Assembly: GCA_035693525.1 (NCBI GenBank)
Contig: DASSGL010000218.1
Coordinates: 1-33,148, forward strand
Origin: Gaiellaceae bacterium
GTDB taxonomy: Bacteria; Actinomycetota; Thermoleophilia; Gaiellales; Gaiellaceae
Direction of reading: 5' to 3'
DNA: 33,148 bases
A program made the position numbers and the translations under genes. Position 1 is the stretch's first letter; the number at the start of each line of letters is the position of its first letter. Under the pieces are notes generated by a model. That model searched no databases. It saw only the letters and a list, made by a program, of their open reading frames with translations, and was not told the DNA's origin. Shown piece by piece: positions 1,106 through 32,529 of the stretch.

Positions 1106-1948
1106 TCAGACGGTGAGGAGGAGCGCGTTCCGCGACGGATCGCGCACGATCACCCCGCCCTCGAGGGGCTCCGGCTCCTGGCCCGAGTCCGCGACCCGCT
1201 CGACGACACCGTCTCGCTCCTCGGCGTTCGGCAGGACGATCGTCGCGTGGCGCAGTGCCGCCGAGCCCGGCGGCGCGGGTGAGGAGCCGCGGCTCTCCCA
1301 CGTGTTCGCGCCGATGTGGTGGTGATAGCCACCCGCGCTCAGAAACGCCGCCGCGGGGCCGAGCTGAGCCATCAGGCCCATGCCGAGAACGCCGTGGTAG
1401 AAGTCGACGGTCTTCGGCACGTCGGCGACGCGCAGGTGGACGTGCCCCATGACGGTGCCGTCGGGAAGGCCGTCGAACGGCTCGGTCGCGGGATCGTCGA
1501 GCTCGCCGAAGAGGCTCTGGACGTCGAGCGGCATCGTCGTCATCTGCTCGAGCACCCGGCCTTCCCAGAGCTCGCGCGGCCGGTCGGCGTAGATCTCGAT
1601 GCCATGATGGTCCGGGTCGCGCAAGTAGATCGCCTCGCTCACGGCGTGGTCGGAGAGACCCTGCAGCTCGAGCTGCTCGCGCACGCCGTGTGCGAGCCAC
1701 CGCGCGAGGCTCGCGCGATCGGGGACGAGCAGCGCGACGTGATAGAGCCCCGTGTGCCCATGATCGGGAAGGGCGCCGGCCTCCTCGACGAATCGCAGGA
1801 GCTCCCGGTCGGAGCCGACCGACGCACGGCCGTTCTCGCGTTCGAGGATGCGCAGACCGACGGCCCTCTGCCAGTACTCGAGCGTGCGATCGAGATCGGA
1901 GACCGTCAGCTCGACCGGGCCCATGTGCGTCGTGGGCGCGATCTCCAT
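1106..1948 (-). CDS. VOC (glyoxalase/bleomycin-resistance/extradiol dioxygenase) family protein, two-domain CatE-like
   Basis: 280-aa track ORF. It has two tandem VOC modules with metal-ligand-like His/Glu contexts (GLYHVALLV...HAVSEAIYLRDPDHHGIEIY; MGHVHLRVAD...GGYHHHIGANTW...GGVIVRDPSRN). It starts 12 nt after the upstream gene's stop. Confidence 0.75.
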   Translation of the reverse strand: MEIAPTTHMGPVELTVSDLDRTLEYWQRAVGLRILERENGRASVGSDRELLRFVEEAGALPDHGHTGLYHVALLVPDRASLARWLAHGVREQLELQGLSDHAVSEAIYLRDPDHHGIEIYADRPRELWEGRVLEQMTTMPLDVQSLFGELDDPATEPFDGLPDGTVMGHVHLRVADVPKTVDFYHGVLGMGLMAQLGPAAAFLSAGGYHHHIGANTWESRGSSPAPPGSAALRHATIVLPNAEERDGVVERVADSGQEPEPLEGGVIVRDPSRNALLLTV

Positions 1949-1960
1949 CCGGTGATTGTG

Positions 1961-2428
1961 TCAGCCCGCCGAGTGCTTGAGCGCGGACTCCTTTCGTTGT
2001 GCCTCCGCAAGCGAGAGTGAGCCGCTGCACACTGCGTCGTTCAGCTCGTTCTCGATCCGATCGACCCGCGCCGCGCGTGGATACGGCTCGGGCCAGAGGT
2101 TGCGCGGATCGGTGGGGTGCCCGCCGAGCTCGAGGCTGATCAGGTGGTCCTCCTGGTAGTCGGACGCCGGCCCCGCCAGCCCGTACTCGCCCAGCTGCCG
2201 GAGCTTCAGCGCGTCCGTGTAGGTCGTGGCCGGCCGGACGGTCGCCGTCCACCCGCGCACACAGATCGTCGTCGCAATGGTCGTCTGCGTGACGTCGGGG
2301 TTCAGGACGCCGGGCGTGCGGACGGCGTCGGCGACGACAGCGGGCGCCGCACGCCCCTGCAGCGCCCGCAGCGCGAGGGCGAGCAGTGCAAGGGCCAGCG
2401 CGGCGGCGAGCAGCAGGCGATATGTCAC
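1961..2428 (-). CDS. Exported small protein with an HNH/His-Me-finger-like motif (putative secreted nuclease)
   Basis: 155-aa ORF. N-terminal hydrophobic signal/anchor (MTYRLLLAAALALALLALALRALQG). C-terminal motif DYQEDHLISLELGGHPTDPRNLWPEP, which I recognise from small actinobacterial proteins annotated as HNH endonucleases. Its start is 1 nt from the stop of the upstream membrane protein gene. Confidence 0.55.
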   Translation of the reverse strand: MTYRLLLAAALALALLALALRALQGRAAPAVVADAVRTPGVLNPDVTQTTIATTICVRGWTATVRPATTYTDALKLRQLGEYGLAGPASDYQEDHLISLELGGHPTDPRNLWPEPYPRAARVDRIENELNDAVCSGSLSLAEAQRKESALKHSAG

Positions 2429-2429
2429 G

Positions 2430-3908
2430 CTACGACGCTACGGCCGGCGCGTCGGCACGCGCAAGACGCTCTTGCGGACGCGTCCGCAAGAGAAGTGCAC
2501 CGCCGAGACCCCAGACACAGTAGGCGACCCAGGGGTCGCCGATCACGTCCGTCTGCACGGCGAGCGCGAGCACCGCGGTGAACGCGGCCGCCATTCCCGC
2601 CGGCCACGGATCCGCTCGGCCGGCACGTACGAGCCCCGCGAGAAGCGCCAGACCCCATGCCGTCCACAGGATCGCTCCGAGCACGCCGAGCTCGACGCCG
2701 AGCTCGGTGTAGTTCGACTCCCCGGCTTTCAGCGGCGTACCCGTCCGCGACGCCGTTTGCCCGACGTTGCCGAGCCCGTACCCCTGCGGATGGTCGGCCA
2801 TCGTCCGCACTCCGTCCTTCAGGCTGACCCAGTGCGAGTGCAGCGACGGCTCGCTCGCGCTCGTCGCGTTGTAACCCGAGGGGCCGTTCCTGCCGATCGC
2901 CTGTTGGTACGTCACGTCGACCTTCGTGAAGCGGCCCGTCGGGCCGATATGCGGAAAGAGATGCGCCCACGCGACCGCGATCGCGATCACGGCAACCGGC
3001 GCGAGGAGCTCGACGAAGCGGCGACGTACGAGCGCGAGCACGACGAGCCCGGCTGCGAATGCGACGAGCGACGAGCGCGAGAACGTCCAGAGCAGGCCGG
3101 CGCCGACGACGAGCGAGAGCGCGATGGTGAGCGCGCTGCGGCGGAGCGCGGCGATCGTGATGAGCAGCGCGACGACGAAGAGATAGCCGCTCGCAAGCGG
3201 CGACAGGAACGTCGACACGAGCCTGCGCAGGAACGGCTTGTCGCCGCCGACGTTGTAGATGAAGTTCTCCGGCAGCCCGTACACCGCGCCGCCCGGCTCT
3301 GTGCGCACTCCGGTGCCGTGGTAGTCGTAGCCGAGGTGCCGGTGGAAGTAGTCGATGACGCCGTTCGTCCGCCACCAGCCGATCGAGACCGTGTAGACGT
3401 CGACGAGGCCGATCGCCGCGACGGATGCAGCGACGACGAGGAGCGTCCAGGCGAGACGCCGGAGGTCGTCGCGCCGCAGCAGGAGAGAGCGGCCGAGGAG
3501 ATAGGCGCCGACGGGCACGAGGTCGTGGCGGAGCCCGAGCGCGACCGCCTTGTGGCCGGCTTCGCCGCCGAGCGTCGACTGCGGCACGAGGGCGTACACG
3601 ACGACGAGGGCCGCGAACGCGAGCGCGAGCAGGTCGACGAGCCCGAAGCGGAAGGGCAGCCGTCGCTCTCGCAGAGCGTCGGTGAATACTCGAAGCAGTG
3701 CGACCGCGAGGAGGATCTCCTTCCACGCGCTGATGACCGTCAGCGTCGAGCCGCGCACGCCGGCCGAGTAGAGCGCCGCCATCACGGCGTTGTGGACCGC
3801 GAGGCCGACGATGAAGATGTAGAGCGCCGCGACCGGCCGCCGCCAGACGACGGCGGCCGCACAGGCGAGGAGCACCGCGTAGAGGGCGAGCTCCAGGGCC
3901 TCGGTCAC
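2430..3908 (-). CDS. O-antigen ligase/polymerase (Wzy_C-type) family polytopic membrane protein
   Basis: 492-aa ORF with a GTG start. It has at least 10 hydrophobic segments and the Wzy_C-like stretch GAGLLWTFSRSSLVAFAAGLVVLALV, followed by a large loop and further TM helices. Confidence 0.7.
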   Translation of the reverse strand: MTEALELALYAVLLACAAAVVWRRPVAALYIFIVGLAVHNAVMAALYSAGVRGSTLTVISAWKEILLAVALLRVFTDALRERRLPFRFGLVDLLALAFAALVVVYALVPQSTLGGEAGHKAVALGLRHDLVPVGAYLLGRSLLLRRDDLRRLAWTLLVVAASVAAIGLVDVYTVSIGWWRTNGVIDYFHRHLGYDYHGTGVRTEPGGAVYGLPENFIYNVGGDKPFLRRLVSTFLSPLASGYLFVVALLITIAALRRSALTIALSLVVGAGLLWTFSRSSLVAFAAGLVVLALVRRRFVELLAPVAVIAIAVAWAHLFPHIGPTGRFTKVDVTYQQAIGRNGPSGYNATSASEPSLHSHWVSLKDGVRTMADHPQGYGLGNVGQTASRTGTPLKAGESNYTELGVELGVLGAILWTAWGLALLAGLVRAGRADPWPAGMAAAFTAVLALAVQTDVIGDPWVAYCVWGLGGALLLRTRPQERLARADAPAVAS

Positions 3909-3949
3909 GCGGCGAGGGTACAGCGGCCGCGTTCAGGGGTGTGTTGCGC

Positions 3950-3981
3950 GCGCCGGAATCCGCGCGAGCGGATTCCGGCGC
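3950..3981 (-). terminator. Perfect 14-bp stem / 4-nt loop hairpin between the small ORF and the O-antigen-ligase gene
   Basis: gcgccggaatccgc (3950-3963), loop gcga, gcggattccggcgc (3968-3981). It lies 13 nt downstream of the small ORF's stop on the minus strand. There is no clear U-tract, so it could be a terminator, an attenuator or an RNA-stability element. Confidence 0.35.
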
Positions 3982-3993
3982 TTGCGCCCCAAC

Positions 3994-4092
3994 TCAGTTG
4001 GGCCCCCAGGGGTCGCTGCCGAGCGTGATGGCGAGTGCGCCGAGGACGAGCATGAGCAGCACGAGCCGCACATAAATGGCCTTGCCGGACAT
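3994..4092 (-). CDS. 32-aa hydrophobic pre-peptide-like small protein (below the ORF-track length cutoff)
   Basis: Read by hand on the minus strand: AAAGGAGG-cccg-ATG, then MSGKAIYVRLVLLMLVLGALAITLGSDPWGPN and TGA. An in-frame TGA lies 14 codons upstream with no alternative start between. The shape is a basic N-region, an approximately 20-aa hydrophobic core and a polar Trp-containing tail. It is divergent from the XRE/TPR regulator at 4228. Confidence 0.5.
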   Translation of the reverse strand: MSGKAIYVRLVLLMLVLGALAITLGSDPWGPN

Positions 4093-4189
4093 CGGGCCTC
4101 CTTTTGCCGTTCGAGCCCCTCCCCAGCGAGGGGCTCACTGTAAGACGCGACGAGACCAGGTCTCACCGACCGCTGTCAAGCGGAAGCAG

Positions 4190-4218
4190 TTGACGCACGC
4201 CTGACAACCGATTAACAA
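4190..4218 (+). promoter_or_regulatory. Candidate promoter of the XRE/TPR regulator (near-leaderless)
   Basis: TTGACG (4190-4195), 17-nt spacer, TAACAA (4213-4218). The ATG at 4228 follows 9 nt later, implying a very short or absent leader. A GAGACC-a-GGTCTC palindrome lies upstream at 4152-4164. Confidence 0.3.
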
Positions 4219-4227
4219 TGGCCGGTA

Positions 4228-5550
4228 ATGGAGACCGACGGATCGCCGGCCGCGGGCGAGACGATCGGGGAGCGGCTCAAGCGCCTGCGGCTGGAGCGGG
4301 GCTTTTCGCAGCGCGAGCTCGCCGCCCCCGGCGTCTCATACGCCTATATCTCTCGAATAGAGGCCGGCACACGTCAGCCGTCGGTGAAGGCTCTGCGCCG
4401 CCTGGCGGCAAAGCTCGGCGTATCGGCGGACTACCTCGAGACGGGCTCCGACCTCGACGCGGCGGCGGTGCGCGAGCTCCATCTGGCGGACCTCGAGCTC
4501 GCCGTCCGGCTCGGCGACCACGAAGGCCTTCGCGAGAACCTCGGCGCATCACTCGACGAATCGCTCGCCGCCGGGGACCACCCGGCGGCCACCCGAGCCC
4601 GCGTCGCCCTCGCGCAGCTCGCGCTCGAGGACGGGCGCGACCAGGAGGCGGTGGATCTCCTCGAGGACGCGGTCGAGGGAGAGCCGTTCCTCCCGCTCGA
4701 CAGGTTCGAGATCTACGCGAACCTCGGCCGAGCCTATGCGGGCACCGGCCGGCCGGAGAGGGCGGCGGAGCTGTACCAGCGCTGCCTGGACGGCGTCGTG
4801 GAGGCGGGAGGCGATACGGCACTCGAGGCGCGCTATGCGACGCTGCTCAGCTATGCGCTGAGCGACATGGGCGACCTGGGCCGCGCCGAAGAGGTCGTGC
4901 GGCAGGCCCTCGAACGGGTCGAGGACACCGCCGACCCGTACATGCGGGTCAGGCTCTACTGGTCGATGGCGCGGCTCGCCCATGCGGAAGGGCGCGAGTC
5001 GGTCGCGCTCGGGAACGTACGCAAGGCGATCGCGCTGCTCCAGGCGACCGACGACACCTTTCATCTCGCGCGCGCGCACATCCTCGCCGCGGGCATCACC
5101 GTGGGTCGGGCAGACGCGCAGACCGCGGAGACGCACATCGAGATCGCAGAGCGCCTGCTCGGCGGCGGCGCAGCGCCGGAGGACGCGTTCGAGATGCTGC
5201 AGCACCGGTCGCGGATCGCGCTTCTCAAGCAGGATCCCACCGCCGCGGCGGCTTACGCACGCGACGCTCTGGCCCGCGCAGCCAAGCCGGCCGACGAAGG
5301 ACACGCCTCGTTCGCGCTCGCCGATGCGCTCACGGCCCTCGGAGACGTCGCCGGCGCGCACGAGTCGTATGCTCGTGCCGTGGACCTCCTCGAGAGCAGC
5401 GGCAGGTGGCGCAGCGCGTCGACGTCGGCCCGTGTCTGGGGCCGTATGCTCCGCGACCACGGGCGCGAGAGCGAGGCGCTGGACGTCCTCGATCGCGCGG
5501 CCGAGCTCGGCATGCGCGCGACTCCCGAAGCCGCGCGCGCCGAACGTTGA
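4228..5550 (+). CDS. XRE-family HTH transcriptional regulator with a long TPR-like helical-repeat C-terminal domain
   Basis: 440 aa. The N-terminus IGERLKRLRLERGFSQRELA...YISRIEAGTRQPSVKALRRLAAKLGVSADYL is a canonical Cro/C1 (XRE) HTH. The remaining ~370 aa are Ala/Leu/Arg/Glu-rich repeated helix pairs (TPR-like). It is a paralogue of the regulator at 31008-32390. Confidence 0.85.
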   Translation: METDGSPAAGETIGERLKRLRLERGFSQRELAAPGVSYAYISRIEAGTRQPSVKALRRLAAKLGVSADYLETGSDLDAAAVRELHLADLELAVRLGDHEGLRENLGASLDESLAAGDHPAATRARVALAQLALEDGRDQEAVDLLEDAVEGEPFLPLDRFEIYANLGRAYAGTGRPERAAELYQRCLDGVVEAGGDTALEARYATLLSYALSDMGDLGRAEEVVRQALERVEDTADPYMRVRLYWSMARLAHAEGRESVALGNVRKAIALLQATDDTFHLARAHILAAGITVGRADAQTAETHIEIAERLLGGGAAPEDAFEMLQHRSRIALLKQDPTAAAAYARDALARAAKPADEGHASFALADALTALGDVAGAHESYARAVDLLESSGRWRSASTSARVWGRMLRDHGRESEALDVLDRAAELGMRATPEAARAER

Positions 5551-6395
5551 CGGTCGAGGCCGCGGTCCAGCCGCGCGGCCCGTACTCGCTCGCGCTCTCG
5601 GCGCGCTTCGCAAGCGATGCGACCCGCACATTTCGCGACGGCGTCTTCACCGCGCTTCTGGCCGTCGACGGCCGACACGAGCTCGTACGCGCATGGCAGT
5701 CTCCGGACGGAACGGTGTCGATCCGCGCGGAGTCGGCCGCCGGCGTCGCGCGTCTACGCTGGATCCTCGCGCTCGACGACGACCATTCGGAGTTCCTGCG
5801 CCTCGTCCGCGGCGACTCGATGCTCGGTCCCGCCTCCCGTGCGCTGCGCGGCCTGCGGCCGGTGCGTGTCGCGACGGTCGCCCAGGCTCTGCTGCGCGCC
5901 TTCTGCGGGCAGCTGATCGAGGCGAAGAGCGCGCGCAAGCTCGAGCAGAAGATCATCCGCACGCTCTGCGCAGGCTGCCGTGAGCAGCTGCACGTCGCTC
6001 CGACGACGCGCGAGCTCGCCACGCTCGCACCGGCCGAGCTTCGCGGACACGGACTGCACGCCCGGCGCGCTGCATCGCTCGTCCGCCTGTGCCGCTCCCT
6101 CGAGCTCGAGCGACTGCACGAGGTCCCGACGGCCGCGGTCGCGGCGCGGCTCGAGCGCGAACGCGGTCTCGGTCCGTGGTCGGTCGGCGTCGTGTGCCTG
6201 CAAGGGCTCGGTCGGTACGACTACGGGCTCGTCGGAGATCTCGGCCTCGTGAAGCTGCTGCGCGCGCTGCGCCGCCGGCCGGTCGAGGGGTGGGAGACGG
6301 CGGAGCTGCTCGAGCCGTACGGAGAGTGGGCCGGCCTCGCAAGCGTGTACATGCTGGCGGGCTTCTCGCGAGGGCTTCTGCCCGTCGCCGCGTAA
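5547..6395 (+). CDS. alkA: DNA-3-methyladenine glycosylase II / HhH-GPD base-excision glycosylase (AlkA-like)
   Basis: This is the tail of track ORF 4218..6395; the upstream part of that frame is Arg-rich shadow. The TTG start at 5547 overlaps the regulator's TGA (TTGA). Sequence: TVEAAVQPRGPYSLALS...GQLIEAKSARKL...ELRGHGLHARRAASLVRL...RLERERGLGPWSVGVVCLQGLGRYDYGLVGDLGLVKLL, which shows the HhH-GPD hairpin and the catalytic Asp context. Confidence 0.75.
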   Translation: MTVEAAVQPRGPYSLALSARFASDATRTFRDGVFTALLAVDGRHELVRAWQSPDGTVSIRAESAAGVARLRWILALDDDHSEFLRLVRGDSMLGPASRALRGLRPVRVATVAQALLRAFCGQLIEAKSARKLEQKIIRTLCAGCREQLHVAPTTRELATLAPAELRGHGLHARRAASLVRLCRSLELERLHEVPTAAVAARLERERGLGPWSVGVVCLQGLGRYDYGLVGDLGLVKLLRALRRRPVEGWETAELLEPYGEWAGLASVYMLAGFSRGLLPVAA

Positions 6396-6404
6396 CCTCC
6401 CGCC

Positions 6405-7205
6405 ATGGAGCGAATCGCGATCATCGGCGGCGGCCGCATCGGCGAGGCGCTGCTCTCGGGGCTCCTCAGCTCCGGGTGGACCGACCTCGTGGTCACGAGC
6501 AGGAGCGAGACGCGGGTCGACGAGCTGCGGACGCGCCACGGCGTCGACGCGACGACCTCGAACTCCGACGCCGTCGCAGGCGCTGCGATCGTCGTCATCG
6601 CCGTGAAGCCGCAGGACATCGACGCGCTGCTCGACGACATCGGCGGCACGCTCTCACCGGAGCAGACGGTCGTCTCGGTCGCGGCCGCGATCCCGACGTC
6701 GTACATCGAGGCGCGGATCGCCGAGGGCGTCCCGGTGGTCCGGGCGATGCCGAATGCGCCCTCGACGGTGCACGAGGGCATGGCAGGGATTGCGGCCGGC
6801 GCGCATGCGGGCGACGAGCAGCTCGCGCTCGCGGAGGACGTGCTCTCGCACCTCGGGCGCGTCGTCCGGGTCCCCGAGGACGCGATGGATGCGATCACCG
6901 CGGTGTCCGGCTCCGGCCCGGCGTATTTCGCGTTGCTGGCCGAGGCGATGATCGAGGCGGGCATCCTCCTCGGCCTCTCGCGCGAGATCTCGACGACCCT
7001 CGTCGTGCAGACGATGCTCGGGACGGCGAAGCAGCTCCGCGACGAGGGCATGCACCCGGTCGAGCTGCGGGAGTCCGTCACCTCACCGGGCGGCACCACG
7101 ATCGCCGCGATCCGCGAGCTCGAGCAGGCCGGCGTGCGCGCCGCGTTTCTGAACGCGATTCAGGCGGCGATGACTCGGGCCCGCGAGCTGGCGCAAGGTG
7201 GATGA
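6405..7205 (+). CDS. proC: Pyrroline-5-carboxylate reductase
   Basis: 266 aa. IAIIGGGRIGEAL Rossmann motif, VRAMPNAPSTV, and the C-terminal ProC signature VTSPGGTTIAAIRELE. Confidence 0.9.
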   Translation: MERIAIIGGGRIGEALLSGLLSSGWTDLVVTSRSETRVDELRTRHGVDATTSNSDAVAGAAIVVIAVKPQDIDALLDDIGGTLSPEQTVVSVAAAIPTSYIEARIAEGVPVVRAMPNAPSTVHEGMAGIAAGAHAGDEQLALAEDVLSHLGRVVRVPEDAMDAITAVSGSGPAYFALLAEAMIEAGILLGLSREISTTLVVQTMLGTAKQLRDEGMHPVELRESVTSPGGTTIAAIRELEQAGVRAAFLNAIQAAMTRARELAQGG

Positions 7206-7869
7206 CGCCGTCGACATCGTGGTTGCGGACGACCCGGCGGAGGTCGTGGGCGAGCGGCTCGCGGCCGCGGCCCGCCGAGGCGGCCACATCGTCCTCACGG
7301 GCGGGTCGTCGGTCGCGAGAGCGTACGAAGCGGCGGCGCGTCTCGAGGACGACTGGACCGGCGTCGAGCTCTGGTGGGGCGACGAGCGCTCCGTGCCCCC
7401 CGACGACGAGCGATCGAACTACCGCCTGGCCAAGGCGACGCTTCTCGACCGGATCAGGCTCGGTCCGGTGCACCGCATCCGCGGCGAGCTTGGACCGGAC
7501 GAGGGTGCACGCCTCTACGACGAGGAGCTCGCCGGGGTCGGGTCCTTCGACCTCGAGCTTCTCGGGCTCGGCCCCGATGGCCATGTCGCCTCGCTCTTTC
7601 CGGACGAGCCGACGCTCGACGAGGCCGAGCGCCGGGCGATCGGGGCGAAGGCGGGCCTCGAGCCGTTCGTCGACCGGATCACGATGACGCTGCCGCGGCT
7701 CCGCGACGCGCGAGAGGTTCTCTTCGTCGTCACCGGGGAGAACAAGGCCGATGCGGTCGTGGCGGCGCTCTCAGGCGAGCCGTCGCGCCGGGCGCCCGGG
7801 AGCCTCGTCCGCGCGTCGCACGGGAGAACGACCGCCGTTCTCGACGCGGCCGCCGCGAGCAGGCTCTAG
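7198..7869 (+). CDS. pgl: 6-phosphogluconolactonase
   Basis: 223 aa. The GTG start overlaps the end of proC by 8 nt. Motifs: IVLTGGSS, WWGDERSVPPDDERSNY, LLGLGPDGHVASLFP. Confidence 0.85.
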   Translation: MDDAVDIVVADDPAEVVGERLAAAARRGGHIVLTGGSSVARAYEAAARLEDDWTGVELWWGDERSVPPDDERSNYRLAKATLLDRIRLGPVHRIRGELGPDEGARLYDEELAGVGSFDLELLGLGPDGHVASLFPDEPTLDEAERRAIGAKAGLEPFVDRITMTLPRLRDAREVLFVVTGENKADAVVAALSGEPSRRAPGSLVRASHGRTTAVLDAAAASRL

Positions 7870-8249
7870 CTCGCCTCGGGTGCGAAGGTGTCGATCGGCT
7901 CCGTCACGGACACGACGACCGGAAGCCCGGCGACGACCGACTCCAGCGAGACGTACGCGATCGTGCCGACGACGCCGTCCTTCCGGCGCAGGCGCGCCGT
8001 CCGCTGGATGGAGCGCGTCCTCCTGAGCATCGCGTACACCTCGGCGATCTCCTCCTCCGAGCGCACGCTGACGCCCTGCACGTTGAGCTCGGCAAGCTCC
8101 TCGCGCGAGTAGCCGAGCAGCTCGACCGCGCTGTCGTTGACGGCGAGCGTGCGACCGTCGTCGTCTGTGACGAAGACGGCGGAGCGACCGGCCATGAGCG
8201 CTTCCCCGAGCAGCGTCAGATGGAGGATGCGAAGCGGCTCGCCTTCCAT
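7866..8249 (-). CDS. PAS domain protein (stand-alone sensor module)
   Basis: Track ORF 7866..8306. I prefer the ATG at 8249 (MEGEPLRILHL...), which avoids overlapping the upstream gene. PAS-like core: LAVNDSAVELLGYSREELAELNVQGV...RLRRKDGVVGTIAYVSLE. The start choice is uncertain. Confidence 0.65.
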   Translation of the reverse strand: MEGEPLRILHLTLLGEALMAGRSAVFVTDDDGRTLAVNDSAVELLGYSREELAELNVQGVSVRSEEEIAEVYAMLRRTRSIQRTARLRRKDGVVGTIAYVSLESVVAGLPVVVSVTEPIDTFAPEAS

Positions 8250-8268
8250 GCTTCGACGGTACTCCGGT

Positions 8269-8901
8269 CTAGGGCAAGACGGAAGAGGCGCGGAGCTCGA
8301 CCGCAACTCCGCGCGGCGCCGCGAGTACCTGCAGCACGAGCACGGTGTCGGCGACCTGGACGTCCTCGAGGAAGTCGTCCCGGCTCTCGAACGACTCGAG
8401 CACGTCCTCGATCGCGACCGCGTAGCCGGCCCGGTCGGCCGCGGCGATCGTCACGACGGCATCCGCGACCGCCCGAGGGAAGTCTTCGCGGTCGCGCAGG
8501 GTCGCCCCGACCACACGGGCCTCGACGTCGTCGGCCAGGACGAGCAGCGCGAGCGTTGCCGCATACCGCCCGATCGGCGACGCCGCGTCCGCGGCGTCCG
8601 CGTCGAGCGCCCACCTCGCCGCGGCCGACGCGTCGTCGCCGGCGAGGAGCAGCGCCTTCATCGCGCCGATCGGCCGGCCCCATGAGTCGGGCGGCGCGCC
8701 TGCGTCCCAGCTCTCGCGGTAGCGCCCCGCCGCGCGCCGGAGCCATTCCACCGACTCGTCGCCGCGACCGGCCATCACGAGGCAGAGGCCGGCGGCCCAC
8801 GCGCAGTTGCCGAGCTGGGTCAGCTGACGTTGGTCCGCCTCCCTCGCCTCGCCGCCGCGATAGCGCGCGATCGCCGCCTCGGCGCGGGCTTCCCACGTCA
8901 T
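8269..8901 (-). CDS. Hypothetical protein (all-alpha, acidic; no family recognised)
   Basis: 210-aa ORF with GC-rich third positions and normal composition, 19 nt upstream of the PAS gene in the same orientation. Confidence 0.6.
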   Translation of the reverse strand: MTWEARAEAAIARYRGGEAREADQRQLTQLGNCAWAAGLCLVMAGRGDESVEWLRRAAGRYRESWDAGAPPDSWGRPIGAMKALLLAGDDASAAARWALDADAADAASPIGRYAATLALLVLADDVEARVVGATLRDREDFPRAVADAVVTIAAADRAGYAVAIEDVLESFESRDDFLEDVQVADTVLVLQVLAAPRGVAVELRASSVLP

Positions 8902-23650: not shown

Positions 23651-24658
23651 TCACGACGCGGTTGCGAAGACGGCAGGGGCGGGAGCATTGACGTGGCAGC
23701 GGGCCGACTGTCCCGGGGCGGCCTCGACGAGCGGCGGCGTCACACGCGAGCAGACGTCGATCGCAAGCGGGCACCGCGCGACGAAGCGGCAGCCCTCGGG
23801 CGGATCGACGGCCGCCGACGCGTGGCCTTTTTGCACCTCGACGCGCTTCGCGGCGAGCCCCGTGCCGGGGTCGGGGACGGCCGAGAGCAGAAGCTGCGTG
23901 TATGGGTGCAGGGGGTTGGCCAGCACCTGCTCGACCGGCCCCTGCTCGACCAGCTGTCCGGCATACATGACGAGGATGTCGTCCGCGACGTACCGCGCGC
24001 TTGCGAGGTCGTGCGTCACGTAGAGGAACGCAATGCGGCGCTCCTCCTTGAGCTTCAGCATCAGGTTCAGGATCCCGATGCGGATCGAGACGTCGAGCAT
24101 GCTCGTCGGCTCGTCCGCGAGCAGCACCGTCGGCTCGACCGCGAGCGTGCGCGCTATCGCGACGCGCTGTCGCTGCCCGCCCGACAGCTGATGCGGATAT
24201 TTCGCAGCGACGTGCTCCGGCGGCACGAGACCGACCGTCCGCAGCAGCTCGTGCACGCGGTTGTCGGTCTCGGCCGGCCGGACGACCTCGTGGATGCGCA
24301 ACGGCCGCTCGACGTGGTGGCGGATCGTCTTCGCCGGGTTCAGCGATCCGAACGGATCCTGGAAGATCATCTGCACCTGCGAGCGGTAGCGGACGATGTC
24401 GCGGCGGCTCCGGTCGCGGGCGACGTCGCGGTCGCCGAAGAGGATCGTGCCGGACGTCGGCGCGTAGAGCCGCACGAGGAGCCGCGCGACGGTGCTCTTG
24501 CCGCTGCCGCTCTCGCCGACGAGCGCGGTCACGCGCCCGCGCCGGAGCGTGAAGCTGACGTCGTCGACCGCGTGCACGTAGCGGCGGCGGCCCCTGACGC
24601 CGGTGCTCACCGGGAACCGCTTGCTCAGCCCACGCACCTCGAGCGCCGCCTCGCTCAT
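23651..24658 (-). CDS. ABC transporter ATP-binding protein, Opp/Dpp F-type
   Basis: Start at the ATG at 24658 ([15 protein letters not shown]), an ATGA overlap with the upstream gene. Walker A GESGSGKST, signature LSGGQRQR, Walker B LLADEPTSMLD, C-terminal oligopeptide-type motif NPLHPYTQLL...GCRFVARCP. Confidence 0.85.
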   Translation of the reverse strand: MSEAALEVRGLSKRFPVSTGVRGRRRYVHAVDDVSFTLRRGRVTALVGESGSGKSTVARLLVRLYAPTSGTILFGDRDVARDRSRRDIVRYRSQVQMIFQDPFGSLNPAKTIRHHVERPLRIHEVVRPAETDNRVHELLRTVGLVPPEHVAAKYPHQLSGGQRQRVAIARTLAVEPTVLLADEPTSMLDVSIRIGILNLMLKLKEERRIAFLYVTHDLASARYVADDILVMYAGQLVEQGPVEQVLANPLHPYTQLLLSAVPDPGTGLAAKRVEVQKGHASAAVDPPEGCRFVARCPLAIDVCSRVTPPLVEAAPGQSARCHVNAPAPAVFATAS

Positions 24659-25686
24659 GCCGCGCCTCCTGCCAGGTGGCATGCGACGTCGTGCCCCGCC
24701 TCGACGCGGCGCAGCGGCGGGCGCTCGGTCGTCTGCCGGAGGTAGGCATCGCCGCCCGGAACGCAAAGCGGGCAGCGCGGATGGAACCGGCAGCCCGCCG
24801 GTGGATCGGCGAGGTCGGGCGGCGACCCGGGGATGCCGACGAGACGCTCCATCGGCCCCGTGAGCGGTGGGAACGAGGCCATCAGCCCACGCGTGTACGG
24901 GTGCTGCGGGTTCGAGTGCAGCGTGGCCGCCGGCGCGGACTCGACGATCTCACCGGCGTACATGATCGCGATGCGATGGGCGAACTCGATCAAGAGCGAG
25001 AGGTCGTGCGTGATGAAGAGAACGGCGAAGCCGAGCTTGCGCTGCAGGTCCTGGACCTGCTGCAGGATCTCGCGCTGCACGACGACGTCGAGCGCGGTCG
25101 TGGGCTCGTCCATGATCACGACCTCGGGCTCGAGTGCGAGCGCCATCGCGATGATGACCCGCTGCCGCATGCCGCCGGAGAGCTCGTGGGGGAACGCGCG
25201 AATGCGGCGACGGTCGATGCCGACGAGCTCGAGCAGATCACCGGCGCGGTCCTCCGCGTCTCGACGCGAGATCCGCTCGTGCGCGCGCATCATGTCGACG
25301 AACTGCTCGCTCACGCGCGTGACCGGGTTGAGCGCGTTCATTGCGCTCTGGAAGACCATCGAGACGTTCTGCCAGCGATAGCGTCGCAGCCGCGCGCGGC
25401 TGCGTTGTGCGAGATCCTCGCCGCGGAAGAAGACGCCGCCGCCTGTGATCCTCGCCGGCGGGCGAAGGATCTGCATGATGGCGTTGCCGACGGTCGTCTT
25501 TCCGCACCCTGACTCGCCTGCGAGACCGACGATCTCGCCGACGCGGATCGTCAGATCGATTCCGTCGACGGCGCGAGTGCGCCGCTCGACGCCGTAGTCG
25601 ACGACGAGCTTGCGCAGCTCGACGATCGCCTCGCCGGGTGCCCAGTCGGCGAGGCCCGTGCCCTCGGGCTCGACGGCCGCGATCAC
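24655..25686 (-). CDS. ABC transporter ATP-binding protein, Opp/Dpp D-type
   Basis: The GTG at 25686 overlaps the permease stop (GTGA). Walker [39 protein letters not shown]...GCRFHPRCP. Confidence 0.85.
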
Positions 25687-26654
25687 GCCGCCCTCCGGAG
25701 AAACCGCCGCTCCCCACGCTCGGTGCGGAGCCGCGGGTTGCTGACCTCGTCGATGCCGGCGAGCACGAGCGTCAGGCCGAGCACGGTGATGCCGATGGCG
25801 AGCCCCGGGAAGAGGAAGGACCACCACTCGCCCTGGAGCATGCTCGAGTTCACCGTCGCCCAGTAGAGCGCGACACCCCAGCTCGGCTTGTCCATCTGGC
25901 CGAGGCCGAGGAACTCGAGACCCGCGTCGACGAGGATCGCGATGTAGAAGACGAGCACGAACGCCGCAGCGATGCGGCTGATCATGTTCGGCATCAGCTC
26001 ACCGAAGACGATGCGGCGAGTGGACTCGCCCGCGACCTTGGCCGCCTGGATGAAGTCGCGGTTCTTCAGCGTGAGCGCCTGGGCTCGCAGGATGCGCGCC
26101 TCGAACGCCCAGAGCGTGCACGCAATCACGAGCGCCATCGTGAGCATCCCGCGCGTGTGCAGGAAGGCGGTCACGTCGACGAGGAGCGGGATCGTCGGGA
26201 TGACGAAGAACACGCTCGTGACGAGATTCAGCAGGTCGTCCACGACGCCGCCGACGTACCCGGCGAAGACACCGAGGACCACGGCGAGCGCCGTGGCGAT
26301 CACCCCGGCCAGGAGACCGAGCGCGAGCGACCGCCGCGCTCCCCAGACGACCTGGGCGAAGACGTCCTGTCCCTGATCGGTCGTGCCGAACAGGTGGTTC
26401 AGCGACGGCGCCTGGCGGGAGTCGAACGAGAACTCGGTTGCCTTGCTCGCATCGATGAGGAGCGGCGCCAGCAGACCGAGCAGCACCATGCCGAGGACGA
26501 TGGCGAGGCCGAGGCGCGCCTTCGGGTTACGGAGCGTCAGCCGCAGCCAGCCCGGGATGCGGAACCTCGACTTGCGCGCGACGGCGGGCTCGATCGGCGC
26601 GAGAGGTTCGGCGATCGCCTCGGGAACGTCGAGCGTCGGCTGGATCTGCGCCAT
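25683..26654 (-). CDS. ABC transporter permease (OppC/DppC-like)
   Basis: 323 aa with 6 hydrophobic segments. The conserved permease loop region [20 protein letters not shown] (EAA-like) is present. Confidence 0.8.
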
Positions 26655-26656
26655 AC

Positions 26657-27643
26657 CTAGGAGGCCCGCACGCGCGGATCGAGGATGAGATTGACGATGT
26701 CCATGATGAAGTTGGCGACGATCGGGCAGATCGCGAAGACGAGCAGGAGCGCCTGCGTCAGCGGATAGTCATTGCCAAGTGCCGCCTGCTGCAGCGTGTA
26801 GCCGGCGCCCGGATAGCTGAACACGAGCTCGATGAAGATGACCCCGCCGACCGCCGTCGCGAACTGCGGAGCGAAGCCGTTCAGCGGCGGCAGGATCGCG
26901 TTGCGGGCCGCGTACCGCGTCATCACACGCGTGTCTCGCAGGCCCTTGGCATGCCCCATCGCAACGTAGTCCTCACTGATCGTGTTGATCATGACGGTGC
27001 GCATGTTGAGCACCCACCCTCCGGCGTACGCGAGCACGATCGTGAGCGCGGGCAGGATGCCGTGCCGGACCGCGCCCGAGACGAACGGCCAGTTGAAGCC
27101 TGGTGTGGAGCCGTTGTCGTAGGCGTGGTTGATCGGGAACCAGCCGAGCTTCAGCCCGAGGAAGTAGACGACGATCAGCCCGGTGAAGTAGGCCGGGAAT
27201 GCGCCGAGGGCCATGAAGACGGGGACGAACAGCGTGTCGACGCCCCCGCCGCGGCGCCACGCGGCGATCATGCCGATCATCGTTCCGAGCACGAACGCGA
27301 TGAGGAAGGCGATTCCGACGAGCACGATCGAATACGGAAGCGTGCGCCCGACGACCTCGGACACCTTCGACGGGTAGTTCGACGTCGAGATGCCGAAGTT
27401 CATCGTCACGACGCGTTGCAGGTACTGCACGTAGGCGCTCCAGATCGACTGGTCGCCGCCGCCGAGCAGCTTGCGATACGTCTCGATGATCCCGGGGTTC
27501 GACTGAATCTGCGCCGGGCTCAGGTGCTGGAGGACGCCGCCGATCGGATCGCCCGGCATCAGCCGCGGCAGGAGGAACGTGATCGTCAGCGCCACCCACG
27601 TGGCGAAGACGTAAAAGCCGAGTCGACGAAGGATGAAGCGCAT
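26657..27643 (-). CDS. ABC transporter permease (OppB/DppB-like)
   Basis: 328 aa. The N-terminus [33 protein letters not shown] is typical of OppB/DppB-type permeases, and the EAA-like loop [24 protein letters not shown] is present. Confidence 0.85.
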
Positions 27644-27678
27644 TGCTGGGCTTGGTTGGGCTTGACCCTATAACCGCC

Positions 27679-27704
27679 GCGGGCGGGACGCGCGTCCCGC
27701 CCGC
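27679..27704 (-). promoter_or_regulatory. Intercistronic perfect 26-nt GC palindrome between the SBP gene and the first permease gene
   Basis: gcgggcgggacgc|gcgtcccgcccgc is perfectly self-complementary and extends with one mismatch to 27674-27709. It sits in the 93-nt gap after the SBP stop (27737). It probably acts as a partial terminator or mRNA-stabilising hairpin that sets the SBP:permease ratio. Confidence 0.45.
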
Positions 27705-27736
27705 AGCGGTCGGTGGAGGGTCGACTCAGCGTCCGA

Positions 27737-29482
27737 TCACGCGCCGGCCTGGCCGCCGGGACAGATGCGCGTGAAGGACAGGATGTTGTCGGGTGCCGTG
27801 CTGAAGATCGGGTCGCCGTAGAAGTTCTTCGGCGACGTGAAGCAATGGAAGTACTTCGTGCTGTACGTCGACCAGCGAGGACCGACGAACAGCGGGACGA
27901 TCGGCTGGACCTGCAGGAAGATCTTCGCCACCTGCGAGAACAGAGCCTGCTGCTTCTTGGGGTCAAGCGTCGACTTCCACTGGTTGAGGAGCGACGTGGC
28001 CTTGGCGTCGTAGATGTGCGCCCAGTTGCCGGTGTTCGTGGCGTCCTCACCCGACGGCGTGTACTTGAGCTGCGACAGGTTGCTGAGGAAGAAGCTGTAC
28101 GGCGAGGCCTGCGAGGCGGTCTGCCACAGCAGGGTCGGGTTCTTCGTCGCCGACGCGTTCGGATACCACGAGTTCCAGTCCGGCTCGAGCTTCACGTTCG
28201 AGTCGATGCCGATGTCGCGCAGGTTCTTCGTGATGATCTGGTTCGACGCGACCCAGTCGGACCAACCCGAGATCACGTGGATGTCGAGGTTGACGTTGTT
28301 GCCCTTCGGATCGACCAGCGTGCTGCCCTTGTAGGTGAAGCCGGCGTCGGTCAGCATCTTCTTCGCCGCCGTCGGGTTGTACACGGCCGCCTTCTTCGCG
28401 AGCTCGTGGATCGCTCCCTTGTCCCACTTCGGGAAGATGTAGTCGAGCCCGAGCGCGTCGGTCGGCGGTGCGTAGCCGTACTCGCCGAGCTTCGAGACGT
28501 CGTTGCGGTTGATCGCGAGGCTGAGCGCCTTGCGGAACGCGGGGATGCTGTATGGGTACTTCGAGTCGTCGAAGACGAGCGACTGCCCGTACGCGGTCGT
28601 GGCATAGAACCAGTGGTAGTGCTTCGGGTCCTTCGATCCGTACGCCTTCGCGACGTTCGGGACGAAGTTGTGCGTCCAGTCGACCTGGCCGCTCTGGATC
28701 GCGAGGAGCGCCGCGTCGTTGGAGGTCGCCTGCGTGTACTCGAGGCACGGGATCTTCGGTGAGCCCGCCTTCCAGTAGTGCGGGTTCTTGTTGAAGACGT
28801 AGTCCTGAGCCGTGAAGCGCCCGACGACCGCGAACGGGCCGGAGCCCACCGGGCTCGCGTTCGTGAACGTCGCAGGGTCGGACACCTTCGACCAGATGTG
28901 CTGCGGGACGACGAACTGGAGGTTGAGGTTCGCCGCGATGAACTGCGAGTCGACGGTCTTCAGGTTGATCGCGACGGCGTACTTGCCCTTCGCCTTGACC
29001 GACGCGATGTTCGTGTCGGGTGAGGCGTAGCCGACCATGTCCATCGACTTGTCCTGCTTGCCCGCCGTCAGGCTGTAGACGACGTCGGCCGACGTGAGCG
29101 GCGTGCCGTCGGACCACCGCGCGTTGTGCACGAGATTCAACGTCAGCGTCTTGTTGCCGTTGCTCCACTTCCAGCTCTGCGCGAGCCACGGATAGGTGTG
29201 GCCTCCGCCGGCCACGCTCGAGATGATGAGCGGCTCGTAGAACGCGCCGCGCACGAACGCGCCGCTCGGGAGGCCCGTCGCGGTGTAGGGGTTGAAGTTC
29301 TTGACGAACGCCGGATCTCCCGACCCCGTCATCACGAGGCACTTGTGGCCCGCGGCGGCAGCCGCGGCTGACTTCGGCGCGGCAGGAGCCGACGCCGAGA
29401 CGAGGAGGGCGGCGAGGGCCGCCGCAAGGCCGGCCGCGGCGAGGCCGCCGAGCCTGCGTCTGGAAGGTGTCTCACGTCGCAT
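27737..29482 (-). CDS. ABC transporter substrate-binding protein, family 5 (peptide/nickel/oligosaccharide type)
   Basis: The real start is the ATG at 29482 (MRRETPSRRRLGGLAAAGLAAALAALLVSASAPAAP; Tat-like RRR plus a hydrophobic signal), preceded by AAAGGAttgcacg. The body is ~580 aa with the SBP_bac_5 pattern (FYEPLI..., WSDGTPLTSADVVYS, NPHYWKAG). Confidence 0.85.
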   Translation of the reverse strand: MRRETPSRRRLGGLAAAGLAAALAALLVSASAPAAPKSAAAAAAGHKCLVMTGSGDPAFVKNFNPYTATGLPSGAFVRGAFYEPLIISSVAGGGHTYPWLAQSWKWSNGNKTLTLNLVHNARWSDGTPLTSADVVYSLTAGKQDKSMDMVGYASPDTNIASVKAKGKYAVAINLKTVDSQFIAANLNLQFVVPQHIWSKVSDPATFTNASPVGSGPFAVVGRFTAQDYVFNKNPHYWKAGSPKIPCLEYTQATSNDAALLAIQSGQVDWTHNFVPNVAKAYGSKDPKHYHWFYATTAYGQSLVFDDSKYPYSIPAFRKALSLAINRNDVSKLGEYGYAPPTDALGLDYIFPKWDKGAIHELAKKAAVYNPTAAKKMLTDAGFTYKGSTLVDPKGNNVNLDIHVISGWSDWVASNQIITKNLRDIGIDSNVKLEPDWNSWYPNASATKNPTLLWQTASQASPYSFFLSNLSQLKYTPSGEDATNTGNWAHIYDAKATSLLNQWKSTLDPKKQQALFSQVAKIFLQVQPIVPLFVGPRWSTYSTKYFHCFTSPKNFYGDPIFSTAPDNILSFTRICPGGQAGA

Positions 29483-29528
29483 CGTGCAATCCTTTCTTGC
29501 CCTAGGGGCGGTGGAGGCGCGGGGGTGC

Positions 29529-29544
29529 CCGGCAACGTTTCCGG
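29529..29544. promoter_or_regulatory. Candidate LacI-family operator 1
   Basis: ccggCAACGTTTccgg, a 14/16 palindrome centred on CG. It lies 4 nt downstream of the predicted -10 element of the SBP operon promoter. Confidence 0.45.
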
Positions 29545-29547
29545 CGG

Positions 29548-29577
29548 TTGTTACCATGCCGCGGCCGCTCATGTCAA
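29548..29577 (-). promoter_or_regulatory. Candidate promoter of the nine-gene glycoside-uptake operon
   Basis: On the minus strand: TTGACA (29577-29572), 18-nt spacer, TAACAA (29553-29548); alternatively a 17-nt spacer and GTAACA. Confidence 0.45.
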
Positions 29578-29617
29578 GGACAAATCGGTCTCCGGCGCGA
29601 TTCTTGGAGAATTGGCT

Positions 29618-29633
29618 TCTGAAACGTTCCGGA
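29618..29633. promoter_or_regulatory. Candidate LacI-family operator 2
   Basis: tcTGAAACGTTCCgga, a 12/16 palindrome with the same AACGTT core. It lies 11 nt upstream of the lacI-family gene start. Confidence 0.4.
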
Positions 29634-29643
29634 ACATGCTTCA

Positions 29644-30711
29644 ATGCACGCCATGGTCGGTCCTGACGAGCGCGGGGGCAACGGGCGGCGTGGGCGGGCG
29701 ACGATCCGAGAGATCGCCGACATCGCCGGCGTCTCGATCGCCACGGTCTCTCGCGTCGTCAACGGGCGGGGCGAAGTCTCGGACGAGACCCGCGAGCTCG
29801 TCCAGCGGGTCGTGCGCGAGCGTGGCTACTCGGCGAACCGCAGCGCTCGAGGGCTCTCGGCAGGCAAGACGGGGCTCATCGGCGGCACTGTCCCGATGGT
29901 CCACTATCCGTACTTCTCGAACCTCCTGGGCGGGGTGGCCGAAGCGCTCTACGAGCAGGACATGCGCCTCGTGCTCTGCCCGACGCTCCACGAGCACGAG
30001 CGCGAGGTGACGCTCCTCGACCGCCTGCTGCACGGAACCACCGACGGCGCGGTGATCATCCTCCCCGAGGAGTCGAGCGACGAGCTCGAGGACCTTCTGA
30101 ACCACGGCTACCGGTTCGTGGTCGTCGACCCGCAGGTACCGCTGAACGAGCGCATCCCCGCGGTCTCCGCGGCGCACAGCGCAGGCGCCGACCAGGCGGT
30201 GAGGCATCTGCTGTCGCTCGGGCACCGCCGCATCGGCATCATCACCGGCCGGCGTGGAGGCAAGGCGACCGACGACCGGCGGCGCGGCTACTTCGCTGCA
30301 CTGGCCGAGGCGGGGATCACCCCGGACCCCGCGCTCGAGGTGGAGTCGAACTTCGAGCTCCCCGGCGGCACCGCTGCGGCCGCGCGCTTGCTCGACCTTC
30401 CGGAGCCGCCTACGGCGATCTTCGCGTTCAACGACAACATGGCGATCGGCACCATCCGCGCTGCCCGCGTACGCGGCCTGCGCGTGCCGGAGGATCTCTC
30501 CGTCGTGGGCTTCGACGATCTCGACGAGGCGTCCATCGTCACGCCGGCCCTCACCACGATCCGGCAGCCGCTCGCCGAGATGGGTCGGATCGCCGTCAGC
30601 CTGCTCGTCCGCCTGCTCGACAATCAGCGCCTCGAGGCTCTGCACGTCGAGCTCGCGACACGCCTCATCGTGCGCGACTCGACGGCGCCCGTGCCCGCCT
30701 CGCGCGCTTGA
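29644..30711 (+). CDS. LacI family transcriptional regulator
   Basis: 355 aa. HTH motif ATIREIADIAGVSIATVSRVVNG plus a periplasmic-binding-protein-like sugar-binding core (AIFAFNDNMAIGTIRAARVRGLRVPEDLSVVGFDD). An alternative ATG start is at 29653. Confidence 0.9.
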   Translation: MHAMVGPDERGGNGRRGRATIREIADIAGVSIATVSRVVNGRGEVSDETRELVQRVVRERGYSANRSARGLSAGKTGLIGGTVPMVHYPYFSNLLGGVAEALYEQDMRLVLCPTLHEHEREVTLLDRLLHGTTDGAVIILPEESSDELEDLLNHGYRFVVVDPQVPLNERIPAVSAAHSAGADQAVRHLLSLGHRRIGIITGRRGGKATDDRRRGYFAALAEAGITPDPALEVESNFELPGGTAAAARLLDLPEPPTAIFAFNDNMAIGTIRAARVRGLRVPEDLSVVGFDDLDEASIVTPALTTIRQPLAEMGRIAVSLLVRLLDNQRLEALHVELATRLIVRDSTAPVPASRA

Positions 30712-30876: not shown

Positions 30877-30984
30877 TTACCAGTAGCCGCCGTCGCTGAA
30901 TCCGCCCGGCCGGAAGAAGAGCCCGAAGTAGGCCGAGAGGCTCACCAAGAGGATGAGAAGCGAGAAGAGCCGCACCTTGGTCAC
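30877..30984 (-). CDS. 35-aa hydrophobic pre-peptide-like small protein immediately downstream of the XRE/TPR regulator
   Basis: Read by hand. The regulator's TAA (31010-31008) is followed by cggtcggAAAGGAGGTGtgtgac-GTG (30984), then M/V-TKVRLFSLLILLVSLSAYFGLFFRPGGFSDGGYW and TAA (30879-30877). This is the strongest Shine-Dalgarno site in the window. In the track it is hidden as the tail of a 513-aa shadow ORF. Confidence 0.55.
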   Translation of the reverse strand: MTKVRLFSLLILLVSLSAYFGLFFRPGGFSDGGYW

Positions 30985-32390: not shown

Positions 32391-32494
32391 GCTTCACCAA
32401 ACCGCAAGTCGGTTCCACGGGCCTCCCCCAAAAGGGTCATGTTCATGCGAAAATTCAGTGAAGTAGCAGACCGAAGATCACTTGACTGAGCTAC

Positions 32495-32523
32495 TTGACT
32501 GGTCGGGACACGGCGCCTATAGT
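32495..32523 (+). promoter_or_regulatory. Near-consensus sigma-70/SigA-type promoter with no downstream CDS
   Basis: TTGACT (32495-32500), exactly 17 nt, TATAGT (32518-32523). It is preceded by a second CTTGACTG copy, forming a direct repeat (32481-32488 and 32494-32501). Confidence 0.6.
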
Positions 32524-32529
32524 CAGGCC

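Follow-up and report, generated by a model that had tools for sequence, protein, structure and literature searches.

A divergent peptide gene and regulator

We analyzed a 33,148-nt stretch of high-GC DNA from a Gaiellaceae bacterium (contig DASSGL010000218.1; the whole stretch is called the window below), and in particular a locus where a small peptide gene and the gene of an XRE-type regulator with tetratricopeptide repeats (TPRs) are read divergently. The peptide gene has 32 codons, occupies 3994..4092 on the minus strand and encodes MSGKAIYVRLVLLMLVLGALAITLGSDPWGPN. Its open reading frame (ORF) starts at the first start codon after an in-frame stop, with a Shine-Dalgarno sequence AAAGGAGG (4097-4104, minus strand) located 4 nt from the ATG, and a gap of 135 nt (4093-4227) separates the ORF from the ATG of the regulator at 4228. 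The encoded peptide consists of a K/R N-terminal region, a hydrophobic core of 16 residues, small residues at positions 21 and 25, and a C-terminal PWGP. A perfect 14-bp GC-rich hairpin with a 4-nt loop, GCGCCGGAATCCGC gcga GCGGATTCCGGCGC (3950..3981, minus strand), was recognized in the sequence and by RNA folding 12 nt past the peptide stop, and is terminator-like but has no U tract.

The regulator (4228..5550, plus strand) has 440 aa and, according to Pfam, comprises an XRE-type helix-turn-helix (HTH) domain and ~9 TPRs, with matches to HTH_3 (E = 1e-13), HTH_31 (E = 1e-10), TPR_12 (E = 2.5e-17) and other TPR models. Its AlphaFold2 (AF2) model, with a predicted local distance difference test score (pLDDT) of 89.6, has a five-helix HTH followed by 18 TPR-like helices, i.e. 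about 9 TPRs. There are more than 2700 homologues, of which the best matches are 64-85% identical and ~440 aa long, and the matching proteins come from metagenome-assembled genomes of Gaiellaceae/Thermoleophilia. The HTH recognition helix YAYISRIE is invariant in 55 orthologues. A helix with Y238, R240, R242, W245 and R249 is also invariant.

The regulator is followed by an AlkA-like DNA glycosylase gene (5547..6395, plus strand), the TTG start of which overlaps the regulator stop (TTGA, 5547-5550), and then by proC (6405-7205, plus strand) and pgl (7198-7869, plus strand), the gene order being conserved. The assignment of the first of these to the AlkA type is a distant match, and one would not usually expect a glycosylase of this kind as the first structural gene behind a regulator that putatively responds to a signal. 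The initial annotation of this DNA had reported the peptide ORF with its upstream in-frame stop and 135-nt divergent spacing, the 14-bp hairpin, and the TTGA overlap ahead of proC and pgl, and we found all of these in the sequence as it described them. No model of Pfam or NCBIfam matched this peptide or the second peptide family described below, and the Rfam and tRNA scans of the window gave zero matches.

Conservation of the peptide gene and its linkage to the regulator

We fetched 80 loci encoding relatives of the regulator from species-representative genomes, and 76 of them have enough upstream sequence for the comparison. The family-level labels among the 80 loci are all Gaiellaceae, Gaiellales or Thermoleophilia; the remaining loci have only Actinomycetota/Actinomycetes labels, and two carry another phylum label. 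An intact divergent small ORF of matching design is present in 64 of the 76 usable loci, and the ORF is degenerate or frameshifted in three (L043, L046 and L073). The regulators across the evaluable loci are 43% to 85% identical to the one in the window. Our automatic catalogue contains 78 peptide copies from 62 sources (61 loci plus the window), and three more intact ORFs were found beyond it in L032, L060 and L063. A strong purine-rich ribosome-binding site (RBS) precedes every one of the 78 catalogued copies, mostly AAGGAGG, with a weaker AAAGGTGG in one sub-clade. Near-clade peptides are 32 aa long; those of the distant clade, whose regulators are 43-50% identical to the window regulator, have 27-29 aa, and the range over all the 78 copies is 27 to 36 aa. 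The N-terminal segment ahead of the hydrophobic core has 3-9 residues and is poorly conserved.

The per-residue and codon-position statistics were drawn from the 54 copies with 32 codons. P28, W29 and P31 are found in 54/54 copies and G30 in 52/54. The first and second codon positions at PWGP are essentially fixed, having zero entropy except for the second position of G30, and the third positions of P28, G30 and P31 have an entropy of ~1.1 bit. Position 21 is A, S or G and position 25 is G or A in all 54 copies, and the GC contents at the three codon positions of the peptide gene (GC1/GC2/GC3) are 0.64/0.44/0.92. The overall median ratio of nonsynonymous to synonymous substitution rates (dN/dS) is 0.57 because the residues of the hydrophobic core interchange freely; this value is uninformative, and it is the per-site patterns that carry the signal. 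Judged from these alignments, the codon pattern is that of a coding sequence whose C-terminus is under purifying selection. The flanks of PWGP vary by clade, i.e. xEPWGPx, E[MLF]PWGPx and xxPWGP-stop, and this variation around a fixed core resembles a pherotype-type diversification.

The peptides that we looked up in public protein sets are annotated solely as 'hypothetical protein'. A hidden Markov model (HMM) search of 1.84 billion cluster representatives gave 95 peptide clusters at 50% identity, nearly all of which are 29-35 aa long. The lone long match to the profile, the metagenomic protein P0196 with 1235 aa, is an unrelated repeat protein that matches the motif by chance; its score against the peptide profile comes from six copies of 'KIG[SN]DPWGPAPSDG' within its Ig-like repeats.

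High-GC genomes yield many spurious ORFs, and several such ORFs overlap the peptide region in the ORF listing of the window, so one could suspect that this intergenic frame, too, is open by chance and is not a gene. This explanation is refuted by the conservation, since the frame, the length, the RBS and the C-terminal motif recur in 64 loci, where the codons of the invariant residues vary synonymously, and since the peptides form a family of clusters in the public data. By this comparative evidence the small ORF is a real gene, and the proposal of the initial annotation that it is paired with the XRE/TPR regulator is borne out: it is a conserved, translated-looking gene that persistently accompanies the regulator (64/76 loci), with an RBS in each catalogued copy.

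The near clade is syntenic throughout, in the order wzy-like gene, peptide, regulator, alkA-like gene, proC and pgl. The AlkA-like gene directly follows the regulator in 72 of the 80 loci, and the overlap of its start with the regulator stop is seen in the window and in about twelve related loci. Most distant-clade loci have no Wzy-like gene next to the peptide, and the gene that follows the peptide there is a VOC/glyoxalase gene (L055) or a putative methyltransferase-like ORF (L062). The regulator is the divergent neighbour of the peptide in every case, in the near and the distant clade. The peptide genes occur in one to three tandem copies per locus, and one genome carries two complete peptide-plus-regulator modules in tandem (L021, 1685-5320). 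The two regulators of L021 are 68% identical and belong to different sub-clades, and their peptides have the tails GLEPWGPG and GNEPWGPY. The presence of a second regulator (1924-3225) from the other sub-clade suggests that the module was acquired or anciently duplicated as a unit. Since the other neighbours vary and the whole module is doubled in L021, the linkage of the peptide is to the regulator.

Five distant-clade loci (L059, L067, L072, L074 and L078) have a VOC/glyoxalase gene directly beside the regulator and no peptide gene. In sister loci such as L055 (3188-3670) the peptide lies between the VOC/glyoxalase gene and the regulator, and the five loci without it seem to have lost the peptide recently. 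Between pgl and the next conserved gene, the window has a gene for a small PAS-domain protein (7866-8306, minus strand); it is present in only two of the 80 related loci, suggesting a lineage-specific insertion.

The gene downstream of the peptide in the window (2430..3908, minus strand) encodes a Wzy_C/O-antigen-ligase-like membrane protein with 10+ transmembrane segments. A motif TGTACCCT lies ~6 nt before its GTG on the minus strand and is conserved as TGTAC(C/G)CT. In the window (3908-3950) and in L001-L054 this gene has no RBS, and a GC-rich hairpin stands immediately upstream of the motif, which is kept also in L045 and L054, two loci that lack the peptide. The Wzy-like gene is thus apparently transcribed from a leaderless promoter of its own, which makes a self-contained, structured and monocistronic unit the simplest reading of the peptide gene. 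Most near-clade loci have a strong hairpin of differing sequence after the last peptide copy; over these 3' hairpins the mean z is -2.2, and z < -2 in 60% of the copies.

This neighbourhood bears on the strongest alternative to a signalling role, namely that the peptide is a membrane-resident, single-pass small protein with its N-terminus inside and its C-terminus outside, whose tiny PWGP ectodomain modulates a partner in the envelope or membrane, for example the Wzy-like protein or a sensor. In that case the XRE-TPR regulator would do no more than control the transcription of the peptide from the divergent promoter, and its TPR domain would sense something else. The near-clade peptide is immediately upstream of the Wzy_C gene, one sub-clade has only ~25 nt and no hairpin between the two, and divergent regulator/target pairs are common. 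However, the Wzy-like gene, with its apparent promoter, persists without the peptide in the two loci just named, and the distant clade retains the peptide and the regulator without an adjacent wzy gene, which weakens any coupling between peptide and Wzy-like protein. The two full modules of L021 also argue for a two-part functional unit. We consider the membrane-resident explanation rather unlikely, and weigh it again below with the features of the peptide itself.

The same arrangement might suggest a translation-arrest or leader peptide, in which the hydrophobic segment and PWGP-stop stall ribosomes as in the force- or ligand-sensing arrest peptides SecM, MifM, VemP and TnaC and thereby tune a downstream gene. 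Like these, the window ORF is small and has an N-terminal hydrophobic segment that could serve in targeting and a conserved C-terminus rich in Pro, Trp and Gly at the stop codon, and a hairpin and a membrane-protein gene come downstream. But unlike them, the family has no constant downstream target, which may be wzy-like, VOC or the methyltransferase-like ORF, and its one to three tandem copies each have a leader and a hairpin of their own. The wzy-like gene with its apparent promoter has no RBS for the hairpin to mask, and the paralogous peptide described in the next section ends its operon, with the next gene on the opposite strand and hence nothing to regulate in cis. We regard an arrest function as very improbable.

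The shared control region and a second cassette

We aligned 62 intergenic regions. The distance between peptide and regulator is 104-216 nt in all but one of the 62 proximal pairs, the exception being L008 with 313 nt. A conserved CTGTCAAG box at 4173..4180 (minus-strand reading CTTGACAG) appears as the column block ttGtCAAG in the alignment; read on the minus strand, it contains a TTGACA -35-like hexamer for the peptide gene. The TGTCAAG box is also a candidate operator half-site. On the plus strand, the promoter scan gave one promoter-like site, TTGACG-18-AACAAT at 4190..4219, against 0.0 expected, and this regulator promoter is conserved in the alignment as TTGACGa ... A.aAT. Since the site ends 8 nt before the regulator ATG, the regulator mRNA would be leaderless or nearly so. 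The comparison shows two back-to-back promoter-like regions that serve the peptide gene and the regulator operon. TGTCAAG-N5-20-TTGAC is found once per locus and at a constant position in 36 family-1 loci. A single dimer operator spanning the two boxes is doubtful, as the spacing between them shifts from 7 to 17 nt.

The 5' leader of the peptide gene contains a stem-loop, GAGCCCCTC ... GAGGGGCTC (4112..4137, minus strand), identified by RNA folding and comparison. The near clade has the palindrome GAGTCCCTCG..CGAGGGACTC at this site with a few compensatory changes, the window has C/G in place of the consensus T/A, and L016 and L020 have wholly different palindromes. It is unlikely to be an operator and is better read as RNA structure, because the palindrome is replaced while the HTH recognition helix stays invariant. 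The initial annotation had also pointed to a GAGACC-a-GGTCTC palindrome in the control region. It is indeed present at 4152..4164 (no strand assigned), but it is specific to the window and not conserved in the 62 aligned regions, and we rejected it as an operator.

A peptide of ~30 aa that is hydrophobic, occurs in tandem copies with structured leaders and has an XRE-type neighbour might also be a small hydrophobic toxin (type I-like), a bacteriocin or the precursor of a ribosomally synthesized and post-translationally modified peptide (RiPP), repressed by the neighbouring regulator. We find this very improbable. The peptide gene is a core syntenic gene, its consensus-strength RBS is not visibly sequestered, and genes for a modification enzyme, for immunity or for a dedicated exporter are absent from the conserved neighbourhood. 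In addition, the N-terminal part of the peptide is hydrophobic, whereas RiPP leaders are normally hydrophilic.

A second XRE-TPR regulator, recognized by Pfam, is encoded at 31008-32390 on the minus strand, and a co-oriented gene at 30877-30984 (minus strand) encodes a 35-aa peptide, MTKVRLFSLLILLVSLSAYFGLFFRPGGFSDGGYW. Regulators 1 and 2 share 28% identity over 283 residues (E = 2e-16), so that regulator 2 is a paralogue, and its peptide is conserved and of the same design but has another tail, G-[ML]-[SN]-D-G-G-[YF]-W. We surveyed 80 metagenome loci with relatives of regulator 2 (L081-L160), 74 of them usable, and in about 68 of the 74 regulator 2 is followed by a same-strand ORF of 34-38 aa with an RBS. 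The layout of the family-2 peptides is M-x-K-x-R, a hydrophobic core, [RKH]P.G and a [MLF][SN]DGG[YFG][WLF] tail. The initial annotation held that the organisation of the first peptide mirrors that of the second. This stands for the architecture, i.e. K/R residues, a hydrophobic core and a polar tail with an aromatic residue, but homology is not demonstrated: hhalign of the two families gave a probability of 81% with only the basic and hydrophobic parts aligned, so a common ancestry of the two peptide families is no more than a possibility. The family-2 peptide gene is the last gene of its operon, with the next window gene on the opposite strand; it sits within the operon of regulator 2 and has no membrane-protein neighbour, a point against the membrane-resident explanation above.

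In the control region of regulator 2 (32440-32500), ACTTGAC boxes are repeated and GTGAAGT occurs in inverted orientation. The core CTTGAC/GTCAAG, which is common to both control regions, might be a shared operator half-site or simply reflect -35 elements.

Divergent from regulator 2, we observed a candidate structured small RNA (sRNA) of ~175 nt at 32495-32702 (plus strand), with a near-consensus promoter (TTGACT-17-TATAGT at 32495-32523) and a 3' end formed by a GC hairpin and then TTCTCTTT. It exceeds the flanking genes in conservation among the related metagenome loci and has a strong predicted fold of 50 pairs, six of them with compensatory changes; it has no family match in Rfam. Regulator 2 could control this RNA, in analogy to AimR and its target aimX.

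An Opp/Dpp-type ABC importer is encoded ~1.2 kb from peptide 2 (23651-29644, minus strand), with SBP_bac_5, two permeases and an ATPase with oligo_HPY, and a LacI regulator gene (29644-30711, plus strand) lies beside it. A role as the dedicated importer of the peptide is unsupported, given that other loci do not have it in synteny with regulator 2 and that LacI is adjacent, and its location near peptide 2 is probably a coincidence.

Interpretation as a possible receptor/pro-peptide cassette

Several families of known regulators were compared with this locus. In the RRNPP(A) systems of Bacillota and phages (NprR-NprX, AimR-AimP, PlcR-PapR), as in the window, a receptor with an XRE HTH and TPRs adjoins a small peptide gene, and in the peptide a basic N-terminus and a hydrophobic segment precede a short, conserved C-terminal tail, located where the mature signal would be expected. 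The paralogous cassette of the window has in addition the receptor-then-peptide order, which matches plcR-papR, nprR-nprX and aimR-aimP. The signature used by RRNPP_detector is a secreted propeptide of 10-100 aa, a TPR receptor of 250-500 aa, an N-terminal XRE-type HTH for the transcription-factor subfamilies, and adjacency of -60 to 400 bp (PMC10075063), and against these thresholds the peptide size, the receptor size (440 aa), the TPRs, the XRE HTH and the adjacency of the window system all agree. This detector was applied solely to Firmicutes and viruses, and the Actinomycetota are said to signal typically with small molecules (PMC10075063). A 2025 structural-phylogeny paper presents the RRNPPA family without an outgroup (PMC12700828). 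In the literature searched on RRNPP in Actinobacteria/Actinomycetota and on peptide quorum sensing in Gaiella, we found no such system described.

The homology of the receptors is another matter. In a profile search of the PDB, PlcR is the sole protein near the top with a full HTH and TPRs (E = 5.5e-9), but the match covers residues 10-203 of 440 and so falls short of the RRNPP homology threshold (E <= 1e-5, >= 20% identity and >= 60% coverage of both). With Foldseek, PlcR ranks 25 and 42 (template-modelling, TM, scores 0.36-0.55) and a Rap protein ranks 50. LGN/Pins proteins, which have peptide-binding TPR grooves, are among the matches, and domain III of MalT gives the tightest superposition (root-mean-square deviation of 4.2 Å over 319 columns), a likeness to the MalT/AfsR-type TPR sensors. 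The best NCBIfam match, NsdA_fam_reg, indicates a likeness to the NsdA family and is sub-threshold, with 50 bits against a cutoff of 75. To our knowledge, the NsdA and the MalT/AfsR-type proteins do not have the arrangement of an XRE HTH with an adjacent conserved mini-peptide, nor a known peptide ligand.

Unlike the RRNPP(A) receptors, which the literature searched describes only in Bacillota and their mobile elements, the window regulator is in Actinomycetota, its TPRs are canonical (strong TPR_12/TPR_8 matches) and taken alone show no sequence relation to RRNPP receptors, and it heads a housekeeping-type operon. The TPR comparison makes convergence likelier than membership. We treat the regulator as analogous to the RRNPP transcription factors, appearing to be built of the same parts, and the likeness is probably convergent rather than homologous.

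The initial annotation had cited the divergent Rgg-SHP pairs as the precedent. The analogy is good for the gene order: as in Rgg-SHP and PrgX-PrgQ, a divergent short peptide gene of ~30 aa or less shares a control region with its receptor, the peptide has N-terminal K/R followed by a hydrophobic part, and the active part would be expected at the C-terminus. It does not extend to the proteins, as the Rgg receptors have ~285 aa and a 5-repeat domain and the window receptor has 440 aa and ~9 TPRs, and the mature SHP and PrgQ peptides are hydrophobic while the window tail, [STG][ED]PWGPx, is polar and rich in Pro, Gly and Trp.

Our favoured interpretation is that the locus is an RRNPP-like signal/receptor cassette in Actinomycetota (Gaiellaceae), to which we give a probability of roughly 0.45. 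We favour this receptor/pro-peptide model because of the persistent pairing of peptide and regulator, the duplicated module and the paralogous cassette. The regulator, an HTH-9TPR protein, heads an apparently near-leaderless operon that continues into the alkA-like gene, proC and pgl, and the peptide gene, most simply a monocistronic unit, lies on the other strand and is equipped with a 5' stem-loop, a strong RBS and a 3' hairpin. The catalogued peptides have K/R at the N-terminus and D/E in the tail, and the positive-inside rule therefore predicts an N-in/C-out topology with the conserved tail outside the cell; hence a cytoplasmic TPR protein could contact the tail only after its release and import. 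The N-terminal 21-25 residues may serve as an export signal, and cleavage after residue 21 or 25, possibly with trimming, would yield an extracellular peptide of 7-11 residues, ...[S/G/T][E/D]PWGPx. The 16-residue core and the small residues at 21 and 25 fit a Gram-positive-type signal peptide, and a membrane helix fits equally well. After accumulating outside, the peptide might be taken up through an oligopeptide permease and bind the concave groove of the cytoplasmic TPR domain. This binding would alter the action of the regulator at the shared control region, at the TGTCAAG/TTGACG boxes, and would thereby set how strongly the peptide gene and the regulator-alkA-proC-pgl operon are expressed.

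Several observations weigh against this model. The regulator is kept while the peptide is missing at its position in 9 of the 76 usable loci. The alignment of the intergenic regions did not reveal a conserved operator separate from the -35 boxes. The fold matches of the regulator are dominated by generic TPR proteins, and a TPR-only query against the PDB found no RRNPP receptor even at E <= 5 but only generic or canonical TPR proteins. The Opp-type importer is not syntenic with either cassette, and with its LacI neighbour it may import sugars. Classical RRNPP systems are fast-evolving and often mobile, whereas the PWGP core is invariant across the family and the locus is core and syntenic. Finally, the small residues at 18, 21 and 25 also fit the small-xxx-small packing face of a resident membrane helix.

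The last two of these points are those that the membrane-resident explanation would account for. The residues at 18, 21 and 25 lie on one helical face like packing motifs, the hydrophobic stretch with its flanks is long enough to span the membrane, and the family-wide invariance of PWGP is easier to reconcile with a contact, structural or with a partner, than with a signal that evolves fast. On the other hand, the hydrophobic core itself has just 16 residues.

Signalling by peptides that are sensed by cytoplasmic TPR receptors is regarded as a Bacillota speciality, and the receptor/pro-peptide model, if true, would extend it to a second phylum. It would also supply the remote comparator or outgroup that studies of RRNPPA evolution lack (PMC12700828), and it would offer a concrete, synthesisable candidate signal, xEPWGPx, for a hard-to-cultivate group. 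The Gaiellaceae are an abundant and poorly studied family of soil actinobacteria. We suggest, quite tentatively and with some doubt, that they use encoded short peptides sensed by cytoplasmic XRE-TPR receptors, with an origin independent of, or very ancient to, the Bacillota systems, and with at least two orthogonal cassettes per genome, i.e. the PWGP and the SDGG types. If so, one of these cassettes would head an operon with a DNA glycosylase, a proline biosynthesis enzyme and a pentose-phosphate enzyme. Even if the peptides are membrane-resident, they make up an unannotated family of ~30-aa proteins, with 95 clusters, that is tied to a core regulator.

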